Shown piece by piece: positions 10,378 through 59,604 of a stretch of DNA of 64,000 nucleotides. Below the pieces are notes generated by a model. That model made no database searches. It had not been told where the DNA came from and was given only the letters and a program-made list of their open reading frames with translations. Within the stretch, counting starts at the first letter, position 1, and each line of letters begins with the position of its first letter. Position numbers and translations under genes: made by a program. Origin of the DNA: Syntrophales bacterium (GTDB lineage Bacteria; Desulfobacterota; Syntrophia; Syntrophales; UBA4778); the NCBI GenBank assembly GCA_028712885.1, contig JAQTPK010000006.1:14273-78272 (forward strand), written 5' to 3'.

Positions 10378-10389
10378 AAGGCCGGCTTC

Positions 10390-34100: not shown

Positions 34101-34826
34101 TTAAATCCTCCGGTAAATGAATTCCGGAATATGATACTTCCTCTTGTTGAGGACCATTCCCAGCACTTTGCCCTGGGAGCGCAGTATCTTCTCCTTCGTG
34201 TTTTCCGCAACGGGCCAGCGGGTCCGGTCGGCTTCCACCACCAGCACCGTGCCGTCCATAAAGCGGGAGAGCATTACACTCCCAGGCGACCCGCCTGCGG
34301 GCGGTGAATCGACCAGCACATAATCGAACCGCTGCTTAAGTTCCATCCACAGTTTCTCATACAGCAGAAGATCAAGATTCCTGGCGGCTGCAGCCGGGTT
34401 CTTTGAAATCACCGCCAGGGACAGATTCTTTTCCGGGGTGGCGTAGATCGCGCTTTCGACGGGGACACCGTCGCGAAAACTCTCCTCCAGGCCATTCTCG
34501 GCGCCGATTTTGAAATAGCGATGCTGGCCGGGATTTTTCCTGTCCTCGTCCACAAGAAGTACGGATCTGGACATTCTGCCGGCCACGGTCACGGCAAAAA
34601 GACGGGCGAGAGTGGAGGTCCCCTCCCCCGCGCGGGATCCTATAAACTGCACCGTTTTGCCCGCCGTACCCGGCAGGATGGATTCCAGCGTCTGATAAAG
34701 GCAGTCCATCTCACCTTCGACGCCGGGCATCTCCCTTTTAGGCGCGACGCTCTCAGGCTGCTGATCCATGCTTTTCTGCTTTTGAGCCTGCTCCAGGGCT
34801 TCGTAAATCTTGCTCATAATTTTCAC
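34101..34826 (-). CDS. BY-kinase/MinD-like P-loop protein of the PCP module; Walker A Lys replaced by Thr
   Basis: 'VQFIGSRAGEGTSTLARLFA' (Walker A with T70), 'VLLVDEDRKNP' (A'), 'DYVLVDSPP' (B). No C-terminal Tyr cluster. 4-nt overlap with the upstream ATPase gene. Confidence 0.65.
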   Translation of the reverse strand: MKIMSKIYEALEQAQKQKSMDQQPESVAPKREMPGVEGEMDCLYQTLESILPGTAGKTVQFIGSRAGEGTSTLARLFAVTVAGRMSRSVLLVDEDRKNPGQHRYFKIGAENGLEESFRDGVPVESAIYATPEKNLSLAVISKNPAAAARNLDLLLYEKLWMELKQRFDYVLVDSPPAGGSPGSVMLSRFMDGTVLVVEADRTRWPVAENTKEKILRSQGKVLGMVLNKRKYHIPEFIYRRI

Positions 34827-36124
34827 CTCGGTCTGGTCGGTTTGCTGCCTTTGCTGCCGGAATCAAGTTCAGGAAATATTATCTCGTCTCCGACATAGAT
34901 CCTATGTATGTTCTTTATGGACGGGTTCTCTTTCTTGACGTTTTCCATGAGCCTGAAGTCGGTAAAGCCGTAGATTTTCCGGGTCAATGTCGACAGGTTG
35001 TCGCCTTTCTTCACGAGCCGGTTGACGGGATATTTCCCCGGTTTGACGTGCGTGGCCGCAGTCCCTGCGCCGGGGGCGGCGGCTCCCGAGGAGACGGAAG
35101 CGACGGGGGAGACGGCGGCGCCGGGGGGCGCGGTCGACTCTTCTTTTTCCTCTGCGCTTACCGGAGCCTGATGATGAGTTGCTTCAACCTGCGCCGTCTT
35201 GTTTTCTTCTCCGCGATTTCCGATTAAATGCAGATCGCCGGCGGCGAACCATAAGATCGGCACGGCGGCGGCAAGAGCCCCCGCGGCATAGCCCCATCTG
35301 AATGATGCTTCTCTCTTTTTTCCTTTCAGGTCGGAAATGACCTCGCTTGCTGTTTTCGCCGAGACGGTCTTCTTCTGCCGCCCGAATGCCGTAATGAGAG
35401 CGTTATCGCAGATGATGTTGATTTTCCTTGGAACTCCCTCCGCCTCTTTGATTATTTTTCGAACAGCCCATCCGGAAAATATTGCTGCCGATTCCGCGCC
35501 GGCCTTTTGCAGCCGGTGCCGGATATACGCGGCGCTTTCCGCCGTCGTCAGGGGAAGGATGACGGAGCGGATTGCAATCCTTTGATTGATCTGCCTCAGC
35601 GCGTGCTTGGAGAGCATTTCCTCGAACTCAGGCTGCCCGATCAGGACAATCTGGATAAGCTTTTCCTTGGCCGTTTCCAGATTGGACAGAAGCCTTAAAT
35701 TCTCCAGGGTAAGAACGGGTATGTTCTGCGCTTCATCTATGACCAGGACGATGTTGCGGTTTTTCTCGTACTGCCCGATCAGGACCTGGTGCAGCCTGCC
35801 CACCATCTCGAATACATCGTTTGTCTTCACGTCTGCATCGAGCTCCTGCAGAACGGTGTGGAGGAGGCTCCGGAAAGACAGGTTGGGGTTGAAGATATAG
35901 ACGGCGTGCGTGCTCCGGCGGTCAACCGTTTCCAGGTAAGAGCGCAGGACGGTGGTCTTCCCGACTCCTACGGCGCCCGTGACGGCCACAAAGCCTTTTT
36001 TTTTCTCTATCCCGTAAATAATGGAAGCGAGCGCCTCCTTGTGGCTGGGACTGAGAAAAAGAAATTCCGGATCGGGGGTGATATGGAAGGGCTCTTTTTT
36101 AAGCTGAAAGTATTCCAGGTACAT
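34823..36124 (-). CDS. ExeA/GspA-like AAA ATPase with TM segment and C-terminal LysM domain (secretion ATPase type of PEP-CTERM EPS loci)
   Basis: 'YLEYFQLKKEPFHITPDPEFLFLSPSHKEAL..GFVAVTGAVGVGKTTVLRSYL' and 'VLVIDEAQN'. TM helix 'GYAAGALAAAVPILWFAA'. LysM-like 'VKKGDNLSTLTRKIYG..IHRIYVGDEIIFP'. Confidence 0.75.
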   Translation of the reverse strand: MYLEYFQLKKEPFHITPDPEFLFLSPSHKEALASIIYGIEKKKGFVAVTGAVGVGKTTVLRSYLETVDRRSTHAVYIFNPNLSFRSLLHTVLQELDADVKTNDVFEMVGRLHQVLIGQYEKNRNIVLVIDEAQNIPVLTLENLRLLSNLETAKEKLIQIVLIGQPEFEEMLSKHALRQINQRIAIRSVILPLTTAESAAYIRHRLQKAGAESAAIFSGWAVRKIIKEAEGVPRKINIICDNALITAFGRQKKTVSAKTASEVISDLKGKKREASFRWGYAAGALAAAVPILWFAAGDLHLIGNRGEENKTAQVEATHHQAPVSAEEKEESTAPPGAAVSPVASVSSGAAAPGAGTAATHVKPGKYPVNRLVKKGDNLSTLTRKIYGFTDFRLMENVKKENPSIKNIHRIYVGDEIIFPELDSGSKGSKPTRPR

Positions 36125-36133
36125 GGCTCCGCA

Positions 36134-37513
36134 TCACTTTTTATAGGGAATCGCCGCCAGGACAGGAATGCCGAGTCTCTTGCCCGCCGAGTCGGGGGTG
36201 GAAAGGGACTGATCCGAGTATTCCGACAGGAACGCAAGCCCGAAGGCCGCCAGCAGCCCGAACAGCAGCCCCAGTCCCAGGTTATATTCCAGCTTGGGCC
36301 TGACCGGAGATGTCGGCGCCACGGCGGCCTGGACGACGCTGATGTTTGCCATCTTCTGGCTGTCCAGATCTTCGGATATCCGTGCTTCTTCGAGCTTCTT
36401 GAGATACGTCTGGTAATTTCCCTCCTGAATCGCCACTTCCCTTTTCAAGGCCAGGAACTCGCGGTCCCGCGAGTCGAGCAGCAGCAATTCCTCTTCGATC
36501 CGTTCTATCTGCCGCGCCAGGCCGCCGATGCGGGCCTTGCTTGCGCTCAGTTCCATCTCGATCTTTCCGGATTCCTGCCTTCCGATCTCTCCTTTCTGCT
36601 TTTTCAGAAAGGCGGAGACGGTCTTTATCTCGTCGCGAAGGTTCTGCACCACCTGGCTATTGTCCTTGTACTTTCTCAAGAGATCCTGTTCCTTCAGCTG
36701 CAGCGCCAGCAGCTGGGTCTTTATCGTTTCGATCGCCACCTGCCTTTCCGGCTCGAGGCTTCCGCGTGACCTGATCGAGGCAATCCTCTGTTCTCCCTCC
36801 CGGACCTCGTTCTGGGAATGCTTATATGCCGTATCCAGATCGGTCTTTTGCCTGAGCAGAAGGGCTTTCTGCTCCTCCAGCGCTATCACCCCATGCGTTT
36901 TTTTGAACTCCTCCAGATTTTTTTCCGCGTCCCCCAGCCTGTTCGCATAAAGGGCCACCTGATGCTGAAGATACTTCGAGGTAGGACCACTGAAGACCTG
37001 AAGGTGCTTTTCCTTGAATTGTTCCACGAGGAGATTGACCGCCTTGGCCGCAGTCTGGGGATCCCTGTGCCGAAACGCTATCTGGATGACGTCCGACCTC
37101 TGCTTGTTTTCCACCTTGATGTCTTTTTCGAACTGAAGAATGGCTGCTTCGAGAGGAGAAATTCCCGGAGTCAAGACCTGAAGCAGTCCGCCGTACATGT
37201 TGTCCGGACCGATGGACATGATGACATTCTGCAGCAGGTCCCGGCTGGTAAGAATCTGCATTTCCGTGTTGATGATGCCGTCCTGGCTCAGGATGATGGA
37301 AGGTCGGATTTCCCCCACTTCCGGGCGGTACATATGCTCTCTTCCGAATTTGATCATGACGCTTGATTTGGCTTCGTAAACAGGGGGGATCAGAAAGGTA
37401 GCGGCGGCCGCCGCAGCGATGATCACGGTAAAAGCCGCCAGTGCGCGTTTCTTGTACTTGAATATCACTCTTGCGAAATCTCTCATGTTGCCCGAAGGAT
37501 GTTTCTGTTTCAT
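36134..37513 (-). CDS. Polysaccharide co-polymerase / chain-length determinant (Wzz/GumC-like)
   Basis: Start at ATG 37513 (MKQKHPSGNMRDFARVIFKYKKR). N- and C-terminal TM helices flank a long coiled-coil periplasmic region. 'YEAKSSVMIKFG' is Wzz-like. Confidence 0.8.
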   Translation of the reverse strand: MKQKHPSGNMRDFARVIFKYKKRALAAFTVIIAAAAAATFLIPPVYEAKSSVMIKFGREHMYRPEVGEIRPSIILSQDGIINTEMQILTSRDLLQNVIMSIGPDNMYGGLLQVLTPGISPLEAAILQFEKDIKVENKQRSDVIQIAFRHRDPQTAAKAVNLLVEQFKEKHLQVFSGPTSKYLQHQVALYANRLGDAEKNLEEFKKTHGVIALEEQKALLLRQKTDLDTAYKHSQNEVREGEQRIASIRSRGSLEPERQVAIETIKTQLLALQLKEQDLLRKYKDNSQVVQNLRDEIKTVSAFLKKQKGEIGRQESGKIEMELSASKARIGGLARQIERIEEELLLLDSRDREFLALKREVAIQEGNYQTYLKKLEEARISEDLDSQKMANISVVQAAVAPTSPVRPKLEYNLGLGLLFGLLAAFGLAFLSEYSDQSLSTPDSAGKRLGIPVLAAIPYKK

Positions 37514-37526
37514 GTAATCACCTCTC

Positions 37527-38216
37527 TCAGTCCACCGTGTAGGCGAAGCCGAACGGCACCGGGATATTCCTGCGGATATACTGGTCAACCCAGACGTTGA
37601 CCTCCGATATCGGCGATCTCGGCACGTATACGATATCGAACGGCATCAGCAGAACGTCCTGCGACAGATCCGATCCGCTGAAAACTCTCTCGAGGTCCAC
37701 GGTAAAAATGAGCGGTTTCCTCTTCTCTCCCTTGCGGATAATGATCACTTCCTGAGTTCTGGCGCTCTCCATCAGCCCGCCCGCTTCCGCAACCGACTGC
37801 AGGACCGTCAGGGGTCCTGAGAGGCTGACGACCCCAGGACGGTGGACTTCGCCTCCGACATGAACGCGATGGGTTCCGAACGTGCGGACGATGACGGTAA
37901 TCCGCGGCTCTCTCAGTTCTTTTCCGTACTGCTGCTCCAGAACGCGGGAAAGCTCGGACGGAGTCGATTCCGAGGCCGTTATTTCAGGGGCAAGCTGGAG
38001 CGAGATCCGGCCGTCCGGACGCACTATGACCTGCTCATTGAGTTCCGGACTGTTGTAGAACTTTATATCGAGCGTATCGCCCGGCTGGATGCGGTATTCG
38101 GTCTGGGGAAAGGCGGGAGACCGGATATCCGAGACGTTTACCGGTGAAGGGTATTTAACGACGGGAGCGCACGAAACCAGGGCGAGAAGCGTCAGGATGA
38201 CTGCTGCTGTCTTCAT
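37527..38216 (-). CDS. Outer-membrane polysaccharide export protein (Wza/OPX family, short form), lipoprotein
   Basis: Lipobox 'LALVSCAP'. 'YRIQPGDTLDIKFYNSPELN..VRPDGRISLQL' is the Poly_export motif, followed by a SLBB-like 'HVGGEVHRPGVVSL'. 'gaggag' RBS. Confidence 0.85.
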   Translation of the reverse strand: MKTAAVILTLLALVSCAPVVKYPSPVNVSDIRSPAFPQTEYRIQPGDTLDIKFYNSPELNEQVIVRPDGRISLQLAPEITASESTPSELSRVLEQQYGKELREPRITVIVRTFGTHRVHVGGEVHRPGVVSLSGPLTVLQSVAEAGGLMESARTQEVIIIRKGEKRKPLIFTVDLERVFSGSDLSQDVLLMPFDIVYVPRSPISEVNVWVDQYIRRNIPVPFGFAYTVD

Positions 38217-38588: not shown

Positions 38589-40361
38589 TCACCGGCAGGA
38601 GTAAAGCGACAGGAGCCTTTTGAGCACCGTCGAATAATACCGGGCCTGATCCCGGAACTTCCTGCCGTCGCCGGAATCTCCCAGTAAATCGGCGCAGAGG
38701 CATGCGTACCCCAGGCGGAAGGAAAGATAGGCCATTGTATAAAAGGGCAGTTTCGCGGTTATCGACTTGTCTCCCGAGATCTTTGTGTAGCGGCTGATCA
38801 GAAAATCCCTCTGCCGCCGGTCCAGGCCGAATTCGATGCACGCCCCTGCGATATCCCACGCGATGTCCTGGGAGCGGGGGAAAAACTGATCGAGGTGGTG
38901 ATCGAGCCCGTCCGTTTTCATGAAACCGGTCGCCGTGCGCAGCCATTCGTGGGGAAGCATTCTTCCGTCGACGGCAACGGCCTGTCCCGCCTCGAATGTC
39001 CTGTACAAACCTTCGATGCTTTCGAATTTCGAAAGCCACTCAGCTCCCATCGCTTCCTCAATATTGGTTCTCATCATCTCCATCATTTCTTCGGCGGAGG
39101 AGCTTTCCGCCGCCGGGAAATCCGATTTCAGACGGGCGAGATAGGCCGCCATGGTCCCCAACAGGTCCGTGGTGATGATGTCCCTCCGGGAGACCGGACG
39201 TCCGGAAACGAACGGCATGATCAGAAACCCGCTTTTCAGCCCGAGCGCGGGAGGAGCGAATCCCGAAGACGCAAGCGAATCCAGGCGCGCGAGCTTGGAC
39301 CTGCCGTATTTCCCGAGCCCGGCAAATTTCATCAAATACAAGCCGTCCGCCCGCTCTCCCCTCCCGGACCGGAAAAATCTTTTTTCCGAGCAGACGTACT
39401 TTCTCTGTTCATGCTGGGGATGAACGGCGGGATAGTCTTCGGCATTGCTGAAGAATACCCCTCGCCAGTTGCCTGCGGATACGTCTTTGGCGATCGGCGC
39501 CGGGAGGCACGCGTCCAGTCTGCCGGTCCTGATCCAGACGTCTTCGAACGACGCGGCGTATTTCCCGTGCCTGCTCCAGCGCGCCCGGGCCTGCTTATTC
39601 AGAAAATCCGCCCCGTCTGTGTCCCAGCACGGGAAGTAGACGATGCGGTCGTCGGGGATACCCATCTCCGAAATTTTCTGTGCGGCCGATCCAAGTGAAG
39701 AACCGCTCAACCCCGGCCCCTCGTCAATGAGAAGATAGGCCGCCGCGGCCGGCTCCATGAGCGCACGCTGCAGCTCCGGAGACACGAACATTTCTCTCTT
39801 GAACGGATGGCCCCGCGGCCGCAGCGTATAACTGCGGCAGTTGCAGCCCAGTTCTTTCAGCGCAGCGGCGACCACGGCGGACAGGCTGGTCCCGATGCTG
39901 CGGATCCCGATGCAGACGGCCGTTTCGGGCCGCATCTCCGCATGAAAACGGCGGGCGGACTCGAGATAAGTTTCGGGGAATATACCGTAATGCGCGTATC
40001 CTTCCGCAACCCGGGCGCATACGACGGAGGGCAGGCGAAGATTCATAATCCCGCCCAGGATGTCTTTCAACTGATCCAGAACTCCGGCCGTCCCCTCCCC
40101 TCCCCGGGTCCAGGACCTGTGAAATATCTCTCCCGCGCAGAGGGTGGCGGAACGCAGCGCCTGGATTACCGGGTTCAGTGTATCCCTGGCCGGGCTCAGC
40201 GCGTCCGCGAGAGCCGCTTCGAACTCCCCGACCTCGATCAGCAGCTCCACGGCAAGGTCGTGCCCGGTCCGGCCGGCCGGGAACGTCCGGATCAGCTCCA
40301 GCAGCCGCGACCCGATCTCCTGCGGTTCCGAAAACTTTTCCTGTTTTCTGAAAATTATCAT
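38589..40361 (-). CDS. Uncharacterised 590-aa protein: PRTase-like middle region + aminoglycoside/choline-kinase-like C-terminal region
   Basis: Start at ATG 40361 (ATGA overlap). 'AVCIGIRSIGTSLSAVVAAALKELG..AAYLLIDEGPGLSGSSL' resembles a type-I PRTase core. 'LMKFAGLGKYG..GFLIMPFVSGRP' and 'KTDGLDHH..SQDIAWDIAGA' resemble protein-kinase-like-fold lobes. Confidence 0.4.
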   Translation of the reverse strand: MIIFRKQEKFSEPQEIGSRLLELIRTFPAGRTGHDLAVELLIEVGEFEAALADALSPARDTLNPVIQALRSATLCAGEIFHRSWTRGGEGTAGVLDQLKDILGGIMNLRLPSVVCARVAEGYAHYGIFPETYLESARRFHAEMRPETAVCIGIRSIGTSLSAVVAAALKELGCNCRSYTLRPRGHPFKREMFVSPELQRALMEPAAAAYLLIDEGPGLSGSSLGSAAQKISEMGIPDDRIVYFPCWDTDGADFLNKQARARWSRHGKYAASFEDVWIRTGRLDACLPAPIAKDVSAGNWRGVFFSNAEDYPAVHPQHEQRKYVCSEKRFFRSGRGERADGLYLMKFAGLGKYGRSKLARLDSLASSGFAPPALGLKSGFLIMPFVSGRPVSRRDIITTDLLGTMAAYLARLKSDFPAAESSSAEEMMEMMRTNIEEAMGAEWLSKFESIEGLYRTFEAGQAVAVDGRMLPHEWLRTATGFMKTDGLDHHLDQFFPRSQDIAWDIAGACIEFGLDRRQRDFLISRYTKISGDKSITAKLPFYTMAYLSFRLGYACLCADLLGDSGDGRKFRDQARYYSTVLKRLLSLYSCR

Positions 40362-41128
40362 GTCCTCTCCGCCAGGAGTTTCCCACCGTAAACCGAGCGC
40401 ACGAAAATCCGGCCTTTTCCAAGATCTTCGCCCATGCCGAATTCGCGGTCGGCCTTGTGCAGCGATACGCTGTGGAATCCATTCTTTTTCAGCGCTTTCA
40501 TTACCTCGTCCGGAGCATGGCACTTCTGGGATATTCTTACGTCGCTGCGATCCCACCCGGCGCCCCCCCGATGAAAAAGGGTTATATCCGTCCACGCCGT
40601 CTTCTCCCCCGGCGAGTACCCGCCGCGGACAATGCAGGCATCGTCATCTTCCACAATCGCGCATTCTTTCCCCCAGGACGTAAGGTACGCCTCCTCCGTG
40701 TTCAGATCGAACACGAAAACGGCGCCGGGAACGAGGGCAGCCCCCAGGCATTTCAGGACCAGGGTGAAACCGTCCATATCCGGAATGTGATTCAGACTCT
40801 CGAAAGCCGAAAAGGCGCCGTCGCAGCGGCGCGGCACGCTGAAGTTCCTCGCGTCCGCCTGAATGAACCGGGCTCCCGGAACCCTCCGGCGCGCGTAATT
40901 CAGCATATCTCCGGAAATGTCGACTCCGATAATGCCGAAACCCTTTTCCGCGACCGCGTATGCCAGATGCCCGGCGCCGCAGCAAAGATCGAGTACGGCG
41001 CTCCCCGGAAAGAGACCGGGGAAAAGGAGTTTTTCCAGCGCCCTCAGCGCCGGTCCGTGGAAAGCCCCGCCCCAGTATCGGTCATAAAACCGGGAGAATT
41101 TGTCGTAGGTTTCTTCTGCGCGGCTCAA
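40358..41128 (-). CDS. Class I SAM-dependent methyltransferase
   Basis: Motif I 'VLDLCCGAGHLAYAVAEKGFGIIGVDIS'. Post-I 'FIQADARNF'. TTG start. ATGA-type coupling on both sides. Confidence 0.85.
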   Translation of the reverse strand: MSRAEETYDKFSRFYDRYWGGAFHGPALRALEKLLFPGLFPGSAVLDLCCGAGHLAYAVAEKGFGIIGVDISGDMLNYARRRVPGARFIQADARNFSVPRRCDGAFSAFESLNHIPDMDGFTLVLKCLGAALVPGAVFVFDLNTEEAYLTSWGKECAIVEDDDACIVRGGYSPGEKTAWTDITLFHRGGAGWDRSDVRISQKCHAPDEVMKALKKNGFHSVSLHKADREFGMGEDLGKGRIFVRSVYGGKLLAERT

Positions 41129-41739: not shown

Positions 41740-42740
41740 GTCCCCGTCTTCCCGGGCTTCAGGAACACACGATAATTCCGTCGGGGCTCCGGGTTCCACT
41801 TCATCTTGTACTCCTCGTCTCCGCGCAGAAAATCGAATTCCCTCACACCTTCGCCGATCGCCTCTTCAATGGCATGCTCCAGCAGCACCATTCCCGGACT
41901 GCAGCGGCCCATTTCGGGATCAAAACCGCTCAAATAGCAGTAAACCCGCCCTCCCCGCTGAAATGAGTACAGGGCGGCTGCGGGCCGGTTCCCCAGGTTC
42001 ATTCTGTACAGACGCAAAAGGCCCCTCTTCAGCATTCTTGAGCAGACTTCGCCGTGAAAGGATCTCATCACTTCTCCCTGAAGCACTCCCGGCTGGCGGA
42101 TCTCCGCCCAGCGGCGGCCGTGCAGCGAAAAGAGCGCATCCAGAAATGAATCGAGAGTATCCGCATCGGGCGTTTCTATCTCCGCGGGGCCGGATTCCCG
42201 GAGCAGGCGTTTCGCCCGGCGGAGATTGTTGCGGTGTTTATTCGCCAGCACCCGGAGATACAGCTCCATGCTTTCCGGAAGCGCGACGACAAACCGGAGA
42301 TTGTGGGGCTCAATCTTCATTCTGCACGCCGCGGTCAAGTCCGCCCGCAGCAGCGGGGAGTCGGCGGAGACTTCCTGGAGATCGCATCCGTCGAGAGGTC
42401 CGAGCCCGCGCGCGATGCTCTCGCACAGGCAGGCCGCCGCCTGCAGGCTCGAATCCGGACGAATGAGAAAATCCAGACAGTCGGATACCCCGGTCCCGAT
42501 GAAAAATGCTTCGCTGCGCCCGTTTTTTTCGCTGATGTAAAGAGGCGCTATCCCTGCCGGTCCGGAATCATCCCGGACCAGGTGCGCCCAGACCTTTCCG
42601 GCGCCGAAATTCTTCCACCAGGGAATAAGCCAGTCGGGCGACTGAAACGGGCTCGCGCCGGGACACCTGGTCCACAATTCAAGCCATTCGGCCTCGAACC
42701 GTTCCAGGTCCTCTGACGATGAGAGAATACGCGCGTCCAT
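41736..42740 (-). CDS. GNAT-fold acyltransferase, CelD/BioF2-like (Acetyltransf_6)
   Basis: Start at ATG 42740 (MDARILSSSEDLERFEAEWLELW..SPFQSPDWLIPWW). C-terminal 'REFDFLRGDEEYKMKW'. The upstream half of the 698-aa track ORF is an Arg-rich overprint of the GT4 gene and is rejected. Confidence 0.75.
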   Translation of the reverse strand: MDARILSSSEDLERFEAEWLELWTRCPGASPFQSPDWLIPWWKNFGAGKVWAHLVRDDSGPAGIAPLYISEKNGRSEAFFIGTGVSDCLDFLIRPDSSLQAAACLCESIARGLGPLDGCDLQEVSADSPLLRADLTAACRMKIEPHNLRFVVALPESMELYLRVLANKHRNNLRRAKRLLRESGPAEIETPDADTLDSFLDALFSLHGRRWAEIRQPGVLQGEVMRSFHGEVCSRMLKRGLLRLYRMNLGNRPAAALYSFQRGGRVYCYLSGFDPEMGRCSPGMVLLEHAIEEAIGEGVREFDFLRGDEEYKMKWNPEPRRNYRVFLKPGKTGT

Positions 42741-43825
42741 TACCGTTCGCTCACGCCTTTCAGCCGTTCCGTCTCGAGCTCTCTCTCTGCGATACGGCGG
42801 TAGAGGGCAAAGTATTCTCCGGTCATCCGCTCCGAGGAAAACCTTCGCCGGGCTGTTTCCCTGCACAAATCCGAGTCCAGACTTCCGGCCGCCCGGATGG
42901 CTTCGGCCATTTCTTTTGTGTCCGCGACCAGAAACCCCGTCCTGCCCTCGTCGACTATTTCCGGCAGCGCTCCCGAAGGGAAGGCGACGACCGGGGTTCC
43001 GCTGGCAATGGCTTCCATCGCCGACAGCGAGCTCGTCTCCGGGGCGAGGCTGGGCGCCAGCAGGCATCCCGCTTCCCCGAGCAACCGGATTTTTCCCGCC
43101 CCGCCCACCGCACCGAGAAAGCGGCATCTTTTCCCATCCAGCCCCGGCCGCACAACATCCCGGAAATACGCGAGATGCTCGGGATAGGGAAAAACTGTTC
43201 CGGCGATCGCCAGCGGTATCCCGGCCGCCCGTGCGGCTGCCATCCCAAGGTGCACGCCTTTTTCCGGGCAGATCCTGCCCAGCATCAGGGCGAAATTCCT
43301 TTTCGCAAACTTTTTCATGTACTTCCCGACCGGAACGCCGTTCTTTATGACCCCTAAGTTCCCGGCGGGACAAGGACAGGAACGCCGCTGAGAATCCGAA
43401 ACGCAGACGAGGTAAGTGCCGCGCCTCTTCGGCGCCAGCGCATCCGGCCCGTACCACGCAGGCGGGAGATGAAGAGTGGCCAGCACGGGAACCCCCTCGG
43501 GTGGAAGATAACGGTCGAAGTCGATCCCATGCATATGGACGAGGTCGATCCGCCACTTTCCGAGCGCCTCGTTTATGGCGCGGTAAGCCGCGGCTTGCGA
43601 TTCCCTGCGGGCCCGCTCGTCGAAAATCGATGCGGGCGGGGAAATCCGGACCAGGGTCCCCGCAGTACTTGAGCCTTCCGGCGCGATGACGATCGACATC
43701 CCTCCCGCGTCCGCCAGGGCGGAATCGAGCATGGACAAAACCTGCTCCGCCCCCCCGGCCGTATCGGAACGGACCGGAGCGAGGGGATAGGCGACGCTCA
43801 ACACGGTTATCATGCCACGCCTCAC
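42740..43825 (-). CDS. Glycosyltransferase family 4 (GT-B)
   Basis: 'ITVLSVAYPLAPVRSDTAGGAEQVLSML' and C-terminal 'APSLAPETSSLSAMEAIASGTPVVAFPSGALPEIV' (EX7E-type region). Confidence 0.85.
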   Translation of the reverse strand: MRRGMITVLSVAYPLAPVRSDTAGGAEQVLSMLDSALADAGGMSIVIAPEGSSTAGTLVRISPPASIFDERARRESQAAAYRAINEALGKWRIDLVHMHGIDFDRYLPPEGVPVLATLHLPPAWYGPDALAPKRRGTYLVCVSDSQRRSCPCPAGNLGVIKNGVPVGKYMKKFAKRNFALMLGRICPEKGVHLGMAAARAAGIPLAIAGTVFPYPEHLAYFRDVVRPGLDGKRCRFLGAVGGAGKIRLLGEAGCLLAPSLAPETSSLSAMEAIASGTPVVAFPSGALPEIVDEGRTGFLVADTKEMAEAIRAAGSLDSDLCRETARRRFSSERMTGEYFALYRRIAERELETERLKGVSER

Positions 43826-44709
43826 GACACATACCGGCGGACCATTCTGGAGCAGAAATCCGCGTAGGACTCCACCTCCCGGGGCGGACTGGTGTGGTGC
43901 GGGCGAACCCCTTTCTCCTCCGGCGTGAAACAGAAGGTCAGCGTGGTATCAAACTTTTCCAGCGCCTTCATCTGCCTGTCGAACCAGGCGTCCGCATCGG
44001 GACGGAAGCTGTCCGCCCAACTCAGTCCCGTGCGCAAATGCCTTACCCCGAGTCTCTCGAGCCAGAGGACTGCATCCCGCAGCCGATGGTCCTCGAAATG
44101 AAACCACTGGCATATGCCCATTTCGGGCGTATAGAGATGAAAACGCGCCAGCGCCTTTTTAGGCGAGCCGTCCTCGCGCAGAAGTCCCATATAGAAATGG
44201 CGGTAATAGGACGATCCTTCCGCCTCCCTATGCCTCGTCGTAGCCGGCCACGTCTTCGGCAGATCGAAAAGGCTGTACCAGTGGATGCGGGGCGTCTTCC
44301 CGATAAGGAGCTCGGCGGTTCTGCGCAGTCCGAACTCCTGGATCTCTTCGGCCCCGAACGTGGAGACTCCTGCTTCCGATACCCACACGGGGAGGGATGT
44401 AACGGTCCGGATTTCGTCGATCCTGTCCGGCCATTCATGAATGGCCCAGTGGTTCCAATCCAGTGGAAACCCGTGCACGGCGACGGCGTCCACGAGATTG
44501 AGGACCCCTTTCCGCCGCATGTTTTCAATAAACCTCGCGTCGATCGGCGAAATCCCCCCCAGGATCCTCTTGACCCGGGGGCATTCCGCGATAACGGCTC
44601 CGGCGGCGGTTTTCACCATTCTGGCATAGATATCCCAGTCGGGGTCCATTCCGAAATCCCAGTGGGACAGGTTGTTCGGCTCGTTCCAGAACATGACCGC
44701 TTCAACCAT
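43822..44709 (-). CDS. Clan GH-A-like (beta/alpha)8 glycoside hydrolase, apparently circularly permuted
   Basis: 'FWNEPNN' (acid/base motif) lies at residues 7-13. 'VWVSEAGVS' (nucleophile motif) lies near residue 112. The C-terminal ~100 aa ('ICQWFHFED..GVRHLRTGLSWADSFRP..TLTFCFTP..YADFCSRMVRRY') resemble strands 1-3 of such barrels. Confidence 0.6.
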   Translation of the reverse strand: MVEAVMFWNEPNNLSHWDFGMDPDWDIYARMVKTAAGAVIAECPRVKRILGGISPIDARFIENMRRKGVLNLVDAVAVHGFPLDWNHWAIHEWPDRIDEIRTVTSLPVWVSEAGVSTFGAEEIQEFGLRRTAELLIGKTPRIHWYSLFDLPKTWPATTRHREAEGSSYYRHFYMGLLREDGSPKKALARFHLYTPEMGICQWFHFEDHRLRDAVLWLERLGVRHLRTGLSWADSFRPDADAWFDRQMKALEKFDTTLTFCFTPEEKGVRPHHTSPPREVESYADFCSRMVRRYVS

Positions 44710-45451
44710 GCCGCGCCTCCATTATTTTTCTGCAGATGAAAACTTCCTCCTCGGGCCTTTCGGTAATCGAGAATCCCGCGCTCCGGAGCATTGCCTCGGC
44801 GCAGGCTCGATTGGGGATCCACCAGTTGGTCGGGTCCCCGGCGTATTTTTCCTCGATAAAGTACATCTGCGGAAACCCCGGCTCCAGGAAGACGTCCTTT
44901 TCCCAGAACTCGTAATCCACTTCGACCGGTGTTCCGTTCCTTTCCCCCCTGAGCATCGTCTGGAAAACGAAAAAATCCTTTACGACGTGCTTATTGATCA
45001 GGTCCAGGGCAAGCAGGGGATGGCGCAGGTGATAGAGCACGCCCAGAAAGAGAACGAGGTCGAACTTTTCGCGCAGGTCCGCTATCTCGTAAACCGACAT
45101 TTCCCGGAATTCTATTTCGATCCCGCAGATTTCGGCCGCGAAGCGCGCCTGCGCAAGGTACCCCTCGTCGTTGTCTATACCGACCACGCGGCTCGCCCCC
45201 CGCCGCTTCATTTCTATGGAATAGAATCCGGCGTTGCACCCTATATCCAGAACGGTCCAGCCGCTGAGGTTTCGCGGGATGGAGCCGGAAAACTTTTTCC
45301 ATTTATTGGCCGGATAGTCGCCGAGAAAATGTCCGGGGGCGGTAATGACGCCGTTCAAATCGATGTTCTGGAACCATTCCCCGAGATCGCGTATCCGTCG
45401 GCTGATCTCCGCCTTGCTCAATTTTCCGCTCCCCGCCGAATCTCCCGCCAC
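44702..45451 (-). CDS. SAM-dependent methyltransferase, CmoB/DUF1698-like
   Basis: 'RIRDLGEWFQNIDL..G', 'VLDIGCNAGFYSIEMKRRGASRVVGIDND', 'FDLVLFLGVLYHLRHPLLAL', 'NWWIPN'. Confidence 0.8.
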   Translation of the reverse strand: MAGDSAGSGKLSKAEISRRIRDLGEWFQNIDLNGVITAPGHFLGDYPANKWKKFSGSIPRNLSGWTVLDIGCNAGFYSIEMKRRGASRVVGIDNDEGYLAQARFAAEICGIEIEFREMSVYEIADLREKFDLVLFLGVLYHLRHPLLALDLINKHVVKDFFVFQTMLRGERNGTPVEVDYEFWEKDVFLEPGFPQMYFIEEKYAGDPTNWWIPNRACAEAMLRSAGFSITERPEEEVFICRKIMEARHG

Positions 45452-45457
45452 GTCGCG

Positions 45458-46207
45458 TCACCTCTGCCCCGGTACGGCGCCCTCGTTCTCGAGGAGCACG
45501 GCTGCCTCCCGGAAACCGCTCAGGGTACCCACGTCGACATACGACTCCCCCGCGCAAACGCCGTGGGCAACGCCCCCTCGTTCGATAAATGCGTTGACCA
45601 GGCTGCCGAAATATTCATCCACCCCTCCCCGTTCGCGCCAGAGTTCGTGGAGCGCGTGCAGCACCGATCCCGGAAATTTGAATGCCCCCCAGATCCATCG
45701 CGACCCGGCGTCCCGCCGCTTGACCCGGACCTCCAGCACCCGATTCGCCCCGTCCATCAGGACGGCGTCGAACCGCTCGGGGTGATCCACGGGGAAAAGA
45801 AGAAAGGAAAACCTGTGGTCCTCGAGCCGGCAAAGCGCGTCCCCCGGAAACCAGACGGTATCAGGAAGTCCCACGATGGCTTGCTCCTCGGAATGCACAA
45901 GCGGCGCAGCCTGGAAGATCGCATCACACAGTCCTGCGGGCCTGGACTGAACGGCGTAGAAAATTCGGGCCGGCGGCGCCTCGCCTCCATAGTAGCTGAG
46001 AATGTCCGATTTCTCCGGTGAAATAACGAAGCAGATTTTCCTGACGCCTCCCCGCACCATGCGGTCCACCAGGTACTCGCTGACCGCCCGCGGCCTCTCC
46101 AGTTCTCCCTCCCGCCGGCTCCCTACCGGAAGGAGTTCCTTGGAAAAGGCAAGCGGCTGAATCCTGCTCCCCGCGCCTGCTGCCGGAATGATGCCCCACA
46201 TGCTCAA
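45458..46207 (-). CDS. Sugar-phosphate nucleotidyltransferase
   Basis: 'WGIIPAAGAGSRIQPLAFSKELLPV' is the G-x-G-t-R-l signature of NTP_transferase enzymes. Confidence 0.8.
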   Translation of the reverse strand: MSMWGIIPAAGAGSRIQPLAFSKELLPVGSRREGELERPRAVSEYLVDRMVRGGVRKICFVISPEKSDILSYYGGEAPPARIFYAVQSRPAGLCDAIFQAAPLVHSEEQAIVGLPDTVWFPGDALCRLEDHRFSFLLFPVDHPERFDAVLMDGANRVLEVRVKRRDAGSRWIWGAFKFPGSVLHALHELWRERGGVDEYFGSLVNAFIERGGVAHGVCAGESYVDVGTLSGFREAAVLLENEGAVPGQR

Positions 46208-47268
46208 GCTCCGGATGATTTAAGAATTTCCTCAAGGTCGCGGCTGCGCTTCTCGGCGGTATGCGAGGCCAGCGCCCTTTCCCTCGCGGCCCTGCCGATC
46301 GCCGCCACGTTTTCAACAGGAAGCTTCAGGATCGAAACGGCCTCTTCCGTGGAGCGGGCGATCAGTATTTCCCGTCCCGGTTCAAAGAATGCTTCCAGGC
46401 CGTCCCAGTAATCGCTCATGACAGGCACTCCGCAAGATGCAGCTTCGAACAGCCTCCCGGACGGGCAATAGCCCATTCTGGCCATTGCGGCCCTCGTGAC
46501 GTTCAGGGTCAGCCGTGAAGAGCAGTAGAATCGGGAGTGGTCGGGCGGCGCAACGTGCCTCTTGAAATGTATATTCGGCGTCCAGGGGAAATCAGGCGGA
46601 TACAGGGATCCCCCGATCATGAATCTGCGGCCGGGCAGTCGCCGGGCCGGGTTGACCAGAAGCATCTCCAGCGCGTCCTGGCGGTCACCCGAATACGTGC
46701 CCAGATAGGACATGTCGACTACCTCCTCCGCAGTCACGGCAACGGGGCGATGGACCTCCGGGTCGACGCTTCCGTACAGCGGCGCTACCCGACCGGCCCC
46801 GAGCCGGTCCCGCAGCGCCTGCATCGCCGCTCCCCCGGTGTAGCTGAGCACGAGATCAAACCCGGCCAGCCCTCGGCGCCCTATGTAGGCGACGTCCTCC
46901 CCCTTTTCCAGACTGTCGAGCGTTACAGGGGAATCGAGATCGTAAAAGACGCGGAGAGCGCCGGATGAAAGCACCAGTTCCGTGGCGGGCAGGGCGTCCG
47001 GGCAGTAGGATGTCACTATACCCGCATCCGCTCCGGCGAGGCGGCGCTCGGCGACAGGAAGCGCTTCCTTCCAATCCTGGTAGAGGACCAGTTCGCCGCC
47101 GCTGAGTTCCTTCAAGTCCCGATGCAGGGAATAGTAGGGGACGTCGCGTTCAAAAAATACGATGTCGTGGCCGCGCCGGATCAGGTTCCGGCAAAGGCCC
47201 CGCCAGAGCGTGGCATGCCCGTTGCCCCAGGACGAGCTTATCGTCAACCCGAAAATCACGATTTTCAT
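46204..47268 (-). CDS. CgeB-like glycosyltransferase, paralogue A
   Basis: 'MKIVIFGLTISSSWGNGHATLWRGL..RGHDIVFFERDVPYY' and 'FEAASCGVPVMSDYWDGLEAFFEPGREILIA'. Confidence 0.7.
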   Translation of the reverse strand: MKIVIFGLTISSSWGNGHATLWRGLCRNLIRRGHDIVFFERDVPYYSLHRDLKELSGGELVLYQDWKEALPVAERRLAGADAGIVTSYCPDALPATELVLSSGALRVFYDLDSPVTLDSLEKGEDVAYIGRRGLAGFDLVLSYTGGAAMQALRDRLGAGRVAPLYGSVDPEVHRPVAVTAEEVVDMSYLGTYSGDRQDALEMLLVNPARRLPGRRFMIGGSLYPPDFPWTPNIHFKRHVAPPDHSRFYCSSRLTLNVTRAAMARMGYCPSGRLFEAASCGVPVMSDYWDGLEAFFEPGREILIARSTEEAVSILKLPVENVAAIGRAARERALASHTAEKRSRDLEEILKSSGA

Positions 47269-47315
47269 TAAGCGTTCTCTCAGTCGCGTCGGAAAAGCGG
47301 GGATTACGGACGGGA

Positions 47316-48386
47316 TCAGCCGCCCGACAGCTCGGAAACGTATTCTTCAAGCTGGGCCGCCCTGTGCGCGGCCGTATGCTCCGAAAGCACCCGCAGCCGC
47401 GCCCGCTCGCCGATCAGGTATCTTTCTGTCTCGGGCATATCGCGTATCATCTCGAGCGTCTCATCGGCGGTGCGCGAAATCAGAATTTCCCTGTCCGGTT
47501 CGAAAATGGTTTCTATTCCGTCCCAGTAATCGCTGATAATGGGAATCCCGCAGCCCGCGGCTTCGAAGAGCCTGACGCTGGGAGAGTATCCCGCCGCAAC
47601 CATTGCGCTCCTGGTTATATTGAGGGTAAACCGCTGCGCGCCATAGAAGAGCTTGTGCTCGGCGGGATGAAGGTGGTGGACCCTGGCGACGTTCGCCGGC
47701 CAGACGGTCTCTTTCGGGTACATCGGCCCGGCGGCGATGAACCGGCCTTTTTGCCAGCGGCGGGCCGGCTGGAGCATCAGCTCTTCAAGGGCAACCTGGC
47801 GATCCTTGCTGTAGGTGCCCATGTAACCGAGATCCCAGACCTGCTCGCAGCAAACGGGATAATATTCAGCCGGGTCGAATGAGCAGAAAAAAGCCCTGGG
47901 CATTTTCGCCCTGAACTTCAGCGCCAGGACCTCCAGCGTCGGGCCTCCCGTAAAAGAAAGGTACAGATCGTAGGCAGGGATCAGCTTCCTGGTTATATAG
48001 CCGGGGCTGCCGTTTTCCAGCATTGCGAGCGTCACGGGAGTGTCGATATCGTAAAATGCCTTTATGCCGCCTGCGGTCCGGATGACCCACTCGCCGATTT
48101 CGGACCCGTCCGGAACGTACGAGCCGACTATTACCAATTCCGCTTCCCGTATTTCGGACACAAACCTGTCCTTCAGGTCCTTAAAGTCCCGGTACAGCCG
48201 AATCCGCCCGCAATCCCGCGGGCTGTCCCTGTTTGCGGCGTACCATGGGACGTCGCGCTCGAGAAACGTGACTTTATGCCCCCTTTCCGTGAGCTCCCGC
48301 GAGAGGCCGCGATAAGTCGTAGCATGCCCGTTCCCCCATGATGACGTGATTGACAGCCCCAGAATGACAATCTTCAGAGGATGCAT
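47316..48386 (-). CDS. CgeB-like glycosyltransferase, paralogue B
   Basis: Start at ATG 48386 (MHPLKIVILGLSITSSWGNGHATTYRGL..). 'FEAAGCGIPIISDYWDGIETIFEPDREILIS'. The 90 upstream track codons overprint paralogue C and are rejected. Confidence 0.7.
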   Translation of the reverse strand: MHPLKIVILGLSITSSWGNGHATTYRGLSRELTERGHKVTFLERDVPWYAANRDSPRDCGRIRLYRDFKDLKDRFVSEIREAELVIVGSYVPDGSEIGEWVIRTAGGIKAFYDIDTPVTLAMLENGSPGYITRKLIPAYDLYLSFTGGPTLEVLALKFRAKMPRAFFCSFDPAEYYPVCCEQVWDLGYMGTYSKDRQVALEELMLQPARRWQKGRFIAAGPMYPKETVWPANVARVHHLHPAEHKLFYGAQRFTLNITRSAMVAAGYSPSVRLFEAAGCGIPIISDYWDGIETIFEPDREILISRTADETLEMIRDMPETERYLIGERARLRVLSEHTAAHRAAQLEEYVSELSGG

Positions 48387-48388
48387 TT

Positions 48389-49453
48389 TCAACGGATTCC
48401 TCCATTGAACAGCATCTCGAGCTGCTCGGCCCGGTGCCGGTAGGTGTGTTGCGCCAACACTCTCCGCCTTGCGGCTTCGCCGATCCGCTTTGCGCCTCCG
48501 GGAGTCAGTCTCTCCAGCGCTTCGGCGACTTCGTCGCCGCCGCGGACCGTGATAACCTCCCGGCCGGGATCCAGAAATATTTCCATGCCCTCCCACCAGT
48601 CGGAGATTATGCAAGATCCCGCTCCGGCCGCCTCGAACACGCGCGTAGCCGGACAATAGCCGTAACAGGCCATGCTTTCGCGGCTGATGTTCAGAACGGC
48701 GCCGACACTCGAGTTGAATTCGTTGTGCTCGTCCGTATATACGTGCCCCAGCAGGCGCACATTAGCCGGCAGGCTGCGTTCTTCCCAGCCGCTCCCGCCG
48801 AGGAGAAACGATCTGCCGGGGCATCGTTCGGCTGCCCGGAAGAGAAACTCCTCCACCCTCTTTTCCCGGTCAGGCAAACGGTTTCCCAGAAATCCCAAAT
48901 CCGCCGCGAAGCGGGATGACGCGGGCACGGGATAATGGGTTGTAGAATCCAGCGCGTTGTATACCGGTACGCAATCCCGCGCGCCGTATTGCCGGTAGGC
49001 CCGGGCCACCGGTTCTCCTCCTCCATAGGTGAGGATCAGATCGTAACGGGGTATGAGAAGCCGGAAGGGATCGTTCCGGTTGCGGCCGATGCGGTCCAGC
49101 GTGGCGGGCGCGTCCACATCCCAGAATATTACCGAAGCAGGGGCTTTCTCCAGCACTGCAGATTCCAGGTATTCGTCAAAAACCCCGACCCCGCTCGCTT
49201 TAACAATCAGGTCGGCCTGCCCGGCTTCTTCGAGAGCCGAATCCACACCCGGCCGGGATGCCTCATAAACCACCACCCTGGCCCAGGCCGGGTCCGGGAT
49301 GTCCCGGTGCTGCTGGCGTCCATACGCGTCAGGCTCGTAAAAAGTGACACGGTGGCCCCGCAGATCGAGCTCCCGGATTATGCCGCGATAGTAGGTGGCT
49401 GCGCCGTTCCAGTACGCCGAAACCAGGCTTGAACCGAAAAAGGCTATTTTCAT
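48389..49453 (-). CDS. CgeB-like glycosyltransferase, paralogue C
   Basis: Start at ATG 49453 (MKIAFFGSSLVSAYWNGAATYYRGI..; ATGA overlap). 'FEAAGAGSCIISDWWEGMEIFLDPGREVITV'. Confidence 0.7.
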   Translation of the reverse strand: MKIAFFGSSLVSAYWNGAATYYRGIIRELDLRGHRVTFYEPDAYGRQQHRDIPDPAWARVVVYEASRPGVDSALEEAGQADLIVKASGVGVFDEYLESAVLEKAPASVIFWDVDAPATLDRIGRNRNDPFRLLIPRYDLILTYGGGEPVARAYRQYGARDCVPVYNALDSTTHYPVPASSRFAADLGFLGNRLPDREKRVEEFLFRAAERCPGRSFLLGGSGWEERSLPANVRLLGHVYTDEHNEFNSSVGAVLNISRESMACYGYCPATRVFEAAGAGSCIISDWWEGMEIFLDPGREVITVRGGDEVAEALERLTPGGAKRIGEAARRRVLAQHTYRHRAEQLEMLFNGGIR

Positions 49454-50583
49454 GCATTCAGAACGCATCTTTTCTCCCCGTGTCCCGACGAATCCCTGCA
49501 GCCGATCTCGCGGCAGATATGCATAAGCTGATCAACCCTGTGAGCGCATGTATGCCGGCTGAGGACTGTCTCCAGCCCGGAAACCGAAAGCGAACGCGCC
49601 GTGTCAGGGTCGTTCAGAACCTGAAAAATCATTGCGGCGGTTTCGCTGCCGTTTTGAGCAATGAGAAAATCACGTCCGGGGCGAAACAGCCCCTCCGTAT
49701 CCTCCCAGGGGGAGCATATCAGCGGTATCCCGCACGCCAGGGCTTCAAAAACCCGGATCGTGGGTATTCCCCTGAGGTGCGTCACGTAAGGCCGGCGCGG
49801 AACGTGCAGCGCGGCCCGGAAGCAGGAAAAGATTTCCGGGACGCGGTAATTCGGGATCCACCCCTCGTAATCCAGTCCGGCCTCCTTGAGTCTGGTGCGG
49901 GCTTTATCGGGATACCTGACGCCGAAGGCGGCCGCCTTCAAATTAAGCATCCGGACCGGCCCAACGAGAAACTCCTCCAGCTCGCGGCTCCTTTCCCCGT
50001 CCCCCCAGTTCCCTATCCAGACCAGGTCCCGGAAACGTTCTCCCGCGTGCGGCCGAAAAAGACGGGTGTCCGCAGCTTCGTGCCAGACGAATACCCGCCC
50101 CGCCCAGTCCCTGGCTAGATAAAGTTGACGGACGGATTCGCCGAATGCCAGGACGCCGTCGTAACCGGACAAATCGCAAGCGGCGATTGCGTCCGGCTCG
50201 GTGATGGATCGGTGATGAGTGTCATGAAACAGAACACGCAAGGACGCATTCCCGGCCCGGTGCATGCCGATACGGGTCACAAGCTCCCGCGGGTTCCATT
50301 CGTGCACAATCGCCAGATCCTGCCGGTCCAGCTCCGCTTCAAGATCAATATGATCCAGCCGGTACCGCCTCACGCGCAGCTCCGGAAACATGAGGGCTGC
50401 CTCGCTCAATGCGGAAGCGCCGTGCTCCTGTACCAGGTTCCGGACGCTCCAGGCATTTTCTTCCTCGTACACCGATACATCGTGGCCCCGACCCGATAAC
50501 TCCCGTGCAACCCCGCGCAGAAAGTGGGCGTTGCCGTGATTCCAGTCGGAGAGAATCGAATGGCAGAAAATGGCTATTCTCAT
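49450..50583 (-). CDS. CgeB-like glycosyltransferase, paralogue D
   Basis: 'MRIAIFCHSILSDWNHGNAHFLRGV..RGHDVSVYE' and 'FEALACGIPLICSPWEDTEGLFRPGRDFLIA'. Confidence 0.7.
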   Translation of the reverse strand: MRIAIFCHSILSDWNHGNAHFLRGVARELSGRGHDVSVYEEENAWSVRNLVQEHGASALSEAALMFPELRVRRYRLDHIDLEAELDRQDLAIVHEWNPRELVTRIGMHRAGNASLRVLFHDTHHRSITEPDAIAACDLSGYDGVLAFGESVRQLYLARDWAGRVFVWHEAADTRLFRPHAGERFRDLVWIGNWGDGERSRELEEFLVGPVRMLNLKAAAFGVRYPDKARTRLKEAGLDYEGWIPNYRVPEIFSCFRAALHVPRRPYVTHLRGIPTIRVFEALACGIPLICSPWEDTEGLFRPGRDFLIAQNGSETAAMIFQVLNDPDTARSLSVSGLETVLSRHTCAHRVDQLMHICREIGCRDSSGHGEKRCVLNA

Positions 50584-51750: not shown

Positions 51751-53031
51751 TTATCTCCTTTCCAAAATTGAAAGCGGCAGAGGTTTCCTGGTTTGAAGAT
51801 CGCTGAGTATCGGATTGGTTTCGAGATAATAACCGAGCGCTTTTTCCCATGCCTCCTCATCGGGCTCTCCCCACCGGAGGCTGTATTCGCGGCTGCCCGG
51901 GTAAGGAAAGAGGGGCACGGGGTCATTGATCCATACCCCCCGGTCCCGCAGGGTGCTTGACCACTGCGCGATTTCCGAGGGATCATCTCCTGTTTCCATC
52001 AAGGTAGCCTGGACAAAAGGAATTTTCTTCCTTGCATATGCGAGGCGTTCGATCAGGCGGCCTCCGTCGAGCCGCGAAGTCTTTTGCAGCCTGCTCCGGC
52101 CCCGGGAGGTTATGCTCTCCACCCCGGCTTCGATGGAAACGCATCCCGCCCCGCCCAGTCTGTCCAGGCCCGCTTCGCTCCAGAAATCTATCCGCGTCTG
52201 GACTCCGAAACGAATGTTCCTCCGCTCCAACTCGCGCAGAAATTTCCGGTCCGGAAGAAAGATCTCGTCAATAAAATAGATGTAGCGGACCCCCCTTTCG
52301 ATCAGGCAGTCAAGCTCCGCCAGCACCTTCTCCGCGGGCCTCCTCCTGTATTCGCCCCGGAAATTATTTCTTGCGCAGAAAGTGCACCCGAAAGGGCAGC
52401 CGCGGGATGACTCGATTTCGGCTCCGAGCCCCGCCCCGGCGCCCGCATCGAACCGGTGGTGGTGATGAATATGCCTGTCGAGCAGACGCTGCGGCCAGGT
52501 GATTGCCGGAAGCGCGGAAAGGTCGGCAACCGCAGTGCCGGGATTCAGCCGAACCCCGCTCTTTCCGGCAAAGGCGAGGCCGGGGACTCTTTCCCATTCC
52601 GCCCTCCCGTCGAGAAGGTGCAGAACCGATTCGAATTCACCGACAACGGCAATGTCCGCCTCCATTTTTTTCAGCACGGCCGCGGGAGTCACGGACGCGT
52701 GCGGCCCGACGGCGATGAGCGTCGCCCCGATTGGGCTCAGCAATCTCGCGGTCTGCATGGGAACGCGCAGCTCCGGCTGAGGACAGCGCCAGAAGAGATA
52801 TGTCGGAGCGGTCGCAATGATTATGAAATGCGGCGAAAAGTATTCTGCTTTCTCCACCAGCTCAAACGGAGAAATACTCTCAAGGTGCGCGTCAAGGATA
52901 AGTACGGCATGCCCCTCCCTCTCGAGTACGGCGCCGGCATATCCGAATTCCAGCGGAAGATGGGGCTCCCGGCAGCCGAAATAAACGCTGCCTTCGAAAT
53001 CCCAATCCGGATTGACCAGGGCGTATCTCAT
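51751..53031 (-). CDS. B12-binding-domain radical SAM enzyme (second one in window)
   Basis: 'HAVLILDAHL..PHFIIIATAP..LIAVGPHASV' is the cobalamin-binding-like domain. 'SSRGCPFGCTFCARNNF' is the CxxxCxxC cluster. Confidence 0.8.
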   Translation of the reverse strand: MRYALVNPDWDFEGSVYFGCREPHLPLEFGYAGAVLEREGHAVLILDAHLESISPFELVEKAEYFSPHFIIIATAPTYLFWRCPQPELRVPMQTARLLSPIGATLIAVGPHASVTPAAVLKKMEADIAVVGEFESVLHLLDGRAEWERVPGLAFAGKSGVRLNPGTAVADLSALPAITWPQRLLDRHIHHHHRFDAGAGAGLGAEIESSRGCPFGCTFCARNNFRGEYRRRPAEKVLAELDCLIERGVRYIYFIDEIFLPDRKFLRELERRNIRFGVQTRIDFWSEAGLDRLGGAGCVSIEAGVESITSRGRSRLQKTSRLDGGRLIERLAYARKKIPFVQATLMETGDDPSEIAQWSSTLRDRGVWINDPVPLFPYPGSREYSLRWGEPDEEAWEKALGYYLETNPILSDLQTRKPLPLSILERR

Positions 53032-57317: not shown

Positions 57318-57385
57318 GAAACCATCCCGGATTGGAATAATGATCATTGAATATAAATATTAATAAGGAATTAGTAAATGAAAAT

Positions 57386-59579: not shown

Positions 59580-59604
59580 GGAAAACCCCTTGAACCCTCT
59601 TAAT

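Follow-up and report, generated by a model that had tools for sequence, protein, structure and literature searches.

Natural circular permutation of a glycoside hydrolase (GH) barrel is already known: the GH70 glucansucrases are permuted with respect to the (β/α)8 barrel of GH13 (clan GH-H), with non-permuted relatives still extant (PMC4919382, PMC9732880). In clan GH-A, the best solved relative of the gene considered here, in both sequence and fold as assessed with its re-ordered sequence and its normally ordered relatives, is PslG of Pseudomonas aeruginosa (GH39; 5bx9, 4zn2), a hydrolase that is encoded inside the glycan-biosynthesis (Psl) operon and whose key hydrolytic residues are E165 and E276 (PMC9075953). 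PslG keeps its strands in the normal order, is anchored to the membrane, works outside the cytoplasm and carries an additional C-terminal domain. Here we describe a 295-residue protein encoded in a 64,000-nucleotide stretch of a Syntrophales bacterium contig (JAQTPK010000006.1, positions 14,273 to 78,272; "the window", in whose coordinates all positions are given). This protein is very likely a natural circular permutant: a glycosidase with a single (β/α)8 domain, from the PslG/GH39-like branch of clan GH-A. The usual chain order of the clan, β1 to β8, is not kept; instead, the hydrolase runs from β4 to β8 and then from β1 to β3, such that homology to the clan is retained and the topology is changed. 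It would add a PslG-like clan GH-A case to the GH70/GH13 precedent, which lies in a different clan, has the catalytic residues Asp/Glu/Asp and a different cut point, and concerns large, multidomain, secreted enzymes. Compared with PslG, the hydrolase shares the NEP acid/base and the β7 nucleophile, but it is a permuted single-domain protein and, as its N-terminus forms strand β4, it lacks a signal peptide. The parts of the gene are as follows, where "canonical" denotes relatives, and a profile built from them, with the order β1 to β8.

43822 to 44709, minus strand: whole gene, 295 amino acids, PslG-like clan GH-A barrel, very likely circularly permuted; stop codon at 43822 to 43824
44146 to 44709, minus strand: segment A, residues 1-188, strands β4 to β8 with their helices; canonical-order profile positions 116-298
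44677 to 44685, minus strand: N9-E10-P11 at the end of β4; E10 (codon 44680 to 44682) is the predicted acid/base, aligned with PslG E165
44374 to 44376, minus strand: E112 in VWVSEAG, at the end of β7; predicted nucleophile, aligned with PslG E276
44131 to 44145, minus strand: new linker, about residues 189-193, from the shortened helix α8 to strand β1; it takes the place of the old tails at the C- and N-terminus and does not align to the canonical profile
43831 to 44130, minus strand: segment B, residues 194-293, β1-α1-β2-α2-β3-α3; canonical-order profile positions 11-112

The original prediction, made by reading the window alone, had proposed a permuted clan GH-A barrel with strands 4-8 first, on the grounds that FWNEPNN stands at residue 7, VWVSEAG near residue 112, and about 100 residues follow the apparent end of the barrel. 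All three landmarks were located as claimed: FWNEPNN begins at residue 7 (NEP codons 44685 to 44677), VWVSEAG occupies residues 108-114, and GLLREDGSPKKAL (residues 175-187) is followed by roughly 100 residues, which contain ICQWFHFED, GVRHLRTGLSWADSFRP, TLTFCFTP and YADFCSRMVRRY. HMMER, run exhaustively over 1.84 billion representatives, found 1239 relatives. Some of them, of about 320-345 amino acids, are matched by the N-terminal half of the hydrolase in their C-terminal two thirds. BLASTP against the canonical relative P0184 (318 amino acids) gave two matches in swapped order, with residues 1-184 of the hydrolase aligned to P0184 111-292 (37% identity, E 4e-37) and residues 197-293 aligned to P0184 10-108 (41% identity, E 9e-21). 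The old ends abut and nothing is lost between them: residue 293 pairs with P0184 position 108 and residue 1 with position 111, and '...MVRRYVS' and 'MVEAVMFWNEPNN', read one after the other, line up with the consecutive '...MLSRFGH' and 'LFDVVELWNEPNN' of P0184.

The same picture emerged from a family-specific hidden Markov model (HMM; 16 canonical-order relatives, 316 positions), with which both the native and the doubled hydrolase were compared. The native protein matched in two pieces, residues 2-188 to HMM positions 116-298 (169 bits) and residues 194-293 to positions 11-112 (99.6 bits). When doubled, it matched as one domain across the C-to-N joint, with residues 194-295 and then 1-189 covering HMM positions 11-299 (285.6 bits). 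The 22 other members with a full-length colinear match behaved in the same way against the canonical HMM. Two segments are therefore swapped yet colinear with their homologue, and the doubled form aligns as a whole, as the definition of a circular permutant has it. Between the segments, about 5 residues are left unaligned by the HMM and about 12 (residues 185-196) by BLAST; residues 185-196 stand in for the 26-residue C-tail and the 9-residue N-tail of the canonical form. Both the proposed strand order and the proposed seamless junction of the C-terminus with the N-terminus are thus borne out.

An alternative description of this gene would be a truncated clan GH-A barrel, comprising strands 4-8, joined to an unrelated C-terminal domain. 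This is what Pfam sees: PF11790 (Glyco_hydro_cc), the sole Pfam model that touches the hydrolase, covers residues 3-126 only (profile positions 67-188, strands 4-7), in a partial match of 18.2 bits that falls below the gathering threshold of 21. However, the matches of residues 197-293 by BLASTP and of segment B to the canonical profile identify the C-terminal part as the equivalent of the N-terminal 100 residues of the canonical form, and the truncated barrel is ruled out. Against Pfam, the doubled hydrolase scored 34 bits summed over two stretches, with a match that stops short of crossing the joint because the Pfam model is too distant; it was the family-specific HMM that decided. A scan of the native hydrolase against NCBIfam gave no match, and neither Pfam nor NCBIfam holds a model for the permuted family.

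Solved structures were informative only once the order of the chain was restored. In its native order, the hydrolase gave only chance matches in the PDB, to phage gateway proteins. Re-ordered (residues 195-295, then 1-194), it aligned with PslG over residues 9-286 against 28-320 (E 6.6e-5), in an alignment that passes uninterrupted through the artificial joint. The NEP and SEAG glutamates fall on PslG chain positions 139 and 250, which, by a common offset of 26, are E165, within a WNEPN motif of PslG, and E276. A profile of nine canonical relatives matched PslG over its full length at E 5.3e-14, with GH1 and GH39 enzymes next. GH39 beta-xylosidases reach only about E 3e-5. The similarity of the hydrolase itself to PslG remains distant and is seen only with the re-ordered sequence.

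We also considered whether the swapped order could come from a collapsed tandem duplication in the assembly, a danger that the original prediction had itself named, or from a frameshifted gene. An independent contig of 23,319 nucleotides, from an unrelated landfill metagenome, covers 43536 to 45300 with zero differences, joints or indels, and soil and wastewater assemblies concur with it. Metatranscriptome contigs span 43310 to 44571, although DNA carry-over in the RNA library is possible. An in-frame TAA lies five codons 5' of the hydrolase ATG, which makes an N-terminal extension impossible, and the upstream methyltransferase gene, which overlaps by 8 nucleotides, is intact, covering positions 2-226 of the 226-position TIGR04290 profile. 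As had been argued, there is no room for a missing N-terminal part. In addition, the same architecture occurs in complete genomes and in hundreds of species. Nothing was found in favour of an artefact of either kind, and this explanation, too, has been eliminated.

To the extent that a predicted rather than a solved structure can tell, the hydrolase has the fold of a (β/α)8 barrel. AlphaFold2 modelled eight β-α units (predicted TM-score, pTM, 0.82; mean predicted local distance difference test score, pLDDT, 77.9), with strands at residues 2-7, 47-51, 75-79, 108-113, 142-145, about 199-200, 224-230 and 254-260 and a helix after each. The elements run from β4-α4 through β8-α8 and then from β1-α1 through β3-α3, and they correspond one-to-one with those of the canonical P0184 model (pTM 0.86); helix α8 has 8 residues in the hydrolase model and 19 in that of P0184. 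As the original prediction had anticipated, the C-terminal part is modelled as the missing strands of the barrel and not as an unrelated domain. With Foldseek, an order-dependent search, the permuted model retrieved weak generic TIM barrels and partial GH128 matches (E of at least 4e-4 and TM 0.24-0.39 among the 50 matches listed), whereas the canonical P0184 model retrieved PslG at the top (E 5.7e-16, TM 0.72), followed by a Bacteroides GH39 enzyme and then by GH2, GH30, GH53, GH5, GH10, GH17 and GH26. This contrast is predicted by circular permutation, and since the aligner depends on order, the weak result with the permuted model is no evidence against the fold.

In TIM barrels, the loops that lead from a helix to the next strand lie on the face opposite the active site. 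The α3-β4 loop would hold the new ends, and on the same face as these would be the new α8-β1 linker, a helix-to-strand loop of the ordinary kind; with both the cut and the new loop of this type, the catalytic face should be left intact. The chain would thus begin with β4, which carries the acid/base Glu10 (WNEPN), reach the nucleophile Glu112 (SEAG) at β7, pass through the shortened α8 into β1, and end at α3. In the model, pLDDT drops below 50 precisely at loops that are invariant across phyla, namely residues 153-172, 82-86 and 263-271 (for example WPATTRHREAEGSSYYRHF); these are probably substrate-binding loops on the catalytic face.

The brevity of the new linker could also be taken to mean that the barrel is closed between subunits, with β1-β3 (residues 194-295) of one chain packed on β4-β8 of another in a domain-swapped oligomer. 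Only about 5 residues between α8 and β1 are unaligned. Yet in every TIM barrel the end of α8 neighbours the start of β1, so that a short loop suffices, and the AlphaFold2 monomer is compact, with eight alternating strand-helix units. We regard a domain swap as very improbable and favour a permuted barrel that closes within a single chain.

The original prediction had left it to homologues to tell whether the permuted order is conserved and whether canonical-order relatives exist, and both turned out to be the case. In a word-indexed search, 8000 of 8000 scored candidates matched. The permuted order is kept in more than 8000 protein clusters, which share a length of about 295 amino acids and the same ends; among the matches listed, almost all have 294-296 amino acids and are 72-98% identical to the hydrolase. 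When 20 members from several phyla were aligned, every one was seen to start with M-[IVT]-E-A-x-x-x-WNEPNN and to end with ...RRY-x; the mean column identity is 78%, and E10, E112 and the N9-E10-P11 motif are invariant. A scan of one genome per species yielded at least 595 loci, complete genomes among them, in the Acidobacteriota, Gemmatimonadota, Verrucomicrobiota, Myxococcota, Nitrospirota, Thermodesulfobacteriota, Bacteroidota, Armatimonadota and several classes of Pseudomonadota. The carriers include Sorangium cellulosum So ce56, Archangium, Myxococcus, Pontibacter, Variovorax and Ramlibacter, and plasmid copies occur in Sinorhizobium meliloti (pSymB), Azospirillum brasilense, Roseomonas mucosa, Bradyrhizobium and Sphingobium; S. 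meliloti, A. brasilense, S. cellulosum and Variovorax are tractable. Annotated copies are mostly labelled 'beta-xylosidase'. Order-dependent profile and fold searches miss the hydrolase or see half of it, and thousands of copies bear the name 'beta-xylosidase' or 'hypothetical' on thin grounds.

The canonical relatives, among them P0184, P0245 and a fusion with an SDR domain in Rhizobium etli (WP_011427519.1), are 34-41% identical to the hydrolase over both segments. They often carry a C-terminal NAD-dependent epimerase/dehydratase fusion and are far more divergent among themselves than the permuted proteins, whose identity across phyla is 68-76%. In an unrooted maximum-likelihood tree of 23 permuted sequences (re-ordered before alignment) and 16 canonical ones, the two forms are parted by one branch with support of 100/100; branches in the core permuted clade are about 0.02-0.3 long, versus 0.39-2.1 for canonical terminal branches. 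The permuted form may have arisen by the classical route, in which a gene is duplicated in tandem, the copies fuse in frame and both outer parts are lost.

The genomic context of the hydrolase offers a view of its possible function. The neighbouring features on which this view draws are as follows.

44702 to 44709, minus strand: 8-nucleotide overlap ATGGTTGA, where the methyltransferase gene stops and the hydrolase gene starts
44702 to 45451, minus strand: TIGR04290 family methyltransferase, the upstream partner gene (375 bits, cut-off 300)
42740 to 43825, minus strand: GT4 glycosyltransferase, downstream of the hydrolase; its start overlaps the hydrolase stop by 4 nucleotides
51751 to 53031, minus strand: TIGR04295 B12-binding radical SAM protein, the second cluster marker (578 bits, cut-off 400)

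The operon extends from about 55231 down to 38589 and encodes, in order, two SDR sugar-nucleotide enzymes, the TIGR04295 protein, a GT4 glycosyltransferase, four CgeB-like glycosyltransferases, a nucleotidyltransferase, the TIGR04290 methyltransferase, the permuted hydrolase, the second GT4, an Acetyltransf_6 protein, a histidine phosphatase, a second methyltransferase and a 668-residue protein. Both cluster markers exceed their curated cut-offs within this one operon. The hydrolase gene is a core member of this cluster, which recurs in other phyla. The same gene set is found in a Deltaproteobacteria genome and in 80 loci fetched from other species; among the 77 loci from other genomes with sufficient flank, 53 have the TIGR04290 gene as the immediate upstream neighbour of the hydrolase. 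The 8-nucleotide overlap suggests that the start of the hydrolase is translationally coupled to the methyltransferase. Several metagenome proteins of 468-505 amino acids (P0122, P0133, P0140) are frameshifted read-throughs from the methyltransferase into the hydrolase, gene-calling artefacts that the short overlap probably causes.

In A. brasilense and S. meliloti, the hydrolase adjoins genes for inositol-phosphate synthase and histidine phosphatase; at two such alphaproteobacterial loci, on S. meliloti pSymB and on an A. brasilense plasmid, inositol-3-phosphate synthase and histidine phosphatase lie immediately upstream of it. In the window, the histidine phosphatase is present, and inositol-phosphate synthase is not among the scanned genes of the operon. 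The canonical form, fused to an SDR domain, occurs in homologous clusters on a plasmid of Rhizobium etli and on two contigs from metagenomes; alongside it in these clusters are a GT4, a TIGR04290 methyltransferase (337 bits), SDRs and three CgeB-like glycosyltransferases. The permuted and canonical forms therefore appear to fill equivalent places in one pathway. P0184 itself lies on a 1.9-kb contig, so that its context is uninformative.

By comparison with PslG and other hydrolases whose genes lie within operons for glycan synthesis, the hydrolase would be a cytoplasmic retaining glycosidase or transglycosidase, which probably trims or recycles the putative glycan of the TIGR04290/TIGR04295 cluster. 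Alternatively, the fold may have been kept in a protein that is not a hydrolase, and that could instead make or remodel the glycan by transglycosylation or bind it as part of the biosynthetic complex. For example, the operon is biosynthetic and exporter-less, and the gene appears to be coupled translationally to a methyltransferase; conservation at 68-76% identity across phyla is unusual for a degradative glycosidase; and retaining GH-A enzymes can transglycosylate, with GH17 glucanosyltransferases among the fold matches of the canonical model. On the other hand, both catalytic glutamates and the NEP motif are invariant, which favours catalysis, though it does not separate hydrolysis from transglycosylation. 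We consider this alternative unlikely, and a retaining glycosidase or transglycosidase that trims or recycles the glycan remains our preferred description of the protein.

A broader proposal, to which we give slightly less than an even chance, is that this is the first recognised natural permutation in clan GH-A, that it defines a very widespread new family of enzymes dedicated to the intracellular processing of a methylated TIGR04290/TIGR04295 glycan, and that the permuted and canonical forms are interchangeable. Our literature search brought up neither a permuted GH-A/GH39 barrel nor biochemical data for the family, and it had no relevant result for TIGR04290, for 'rhizo-twelve' or for the names of six genes sampled from S. 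meliloti pSymB. Several points weigh against these interpretations. First, the functional role is predicted from gene context. Second, model confidence is low in several invariant active-site loops (residues 11-14, 82-86, 153-172 and 263-271). Third, a single permutation event is compatible with the unrooted tree and is not proven by it, and no tandem-duplicate or split intermediates were seen among the 150 best representatives of the 1239 relatives, so that the proposed route of origin is unsupported. Fourth, some canonical relatives lie outside the cluster, P0229 in an unrelated neighbourhood and P0233 on a phage-like contig.

Both topologies are alive at about 40% identity in homologous operons, which provides a clean natural test of how permutation of a TIM barrel is tolerated and fixed. 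The cut between α3 and β4, together with the new α8-β1 loop, is directly usable for barrel engineering, and the hydrolase gene is a sharp marker of a widespread, uncharacterised glycan pathway in soil, rhizosphere and wastewater bacteria.

Several further features of the window concern the operon and its surroundings. The four CgeB-like (PF13524) glycosyltransferase paralogues are consecutive (46204 to 50583, minus strand), and the open reading frame at 47316 to 48656 overlaps its neighbour by about 270 nucleotides; its real start is probably further downstream. The 668-residue protein (38589 to 40595, minus strand) has no Pfam or NCBIfam match and is a conserved cluster member across phyla, with homologues of about 582 residues, annotated as 'hypothetical protein', adjoining the hydrolase in S. 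meliloti and A. brasilense. Directly downstream of the 'exporter-less' operon lie Poly_export (Wza-like), Wzz/GNVR chain-length and AAA_22 ATPase genes (34823 to 38216, minus strand). These are not found at that spot in other genomes, one of which has type II secretion/pilus genes there.

Upstream of the operon (55890 to 60603, minus strand) are genes for a ManC-type GDP-mannose pyrophosphorylase/isomerase, a GH5_18-like hydrolase, a GT4 glycosyltransferase and a GH130 beta-1,4-mannooligosaccharide phosphorylase, a mannose-themed cassette that may hint at a mannoside substrate. The protein at 57386 to 58564, which the original prediction had used as its canonical GH5-like comparison, is indeed GH5_18-like: its matches to chains of GH5 mannanases and mannosidases reach E 2e-17. 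Finally, the gene for P0233 (326 amino acids, canonical order; 10001-10981 of locus L007, and also in L008) lies just upstream of small and large terminase genes, and may represent a phage-borne glycan hydrolase of the PslG-like subfamily.

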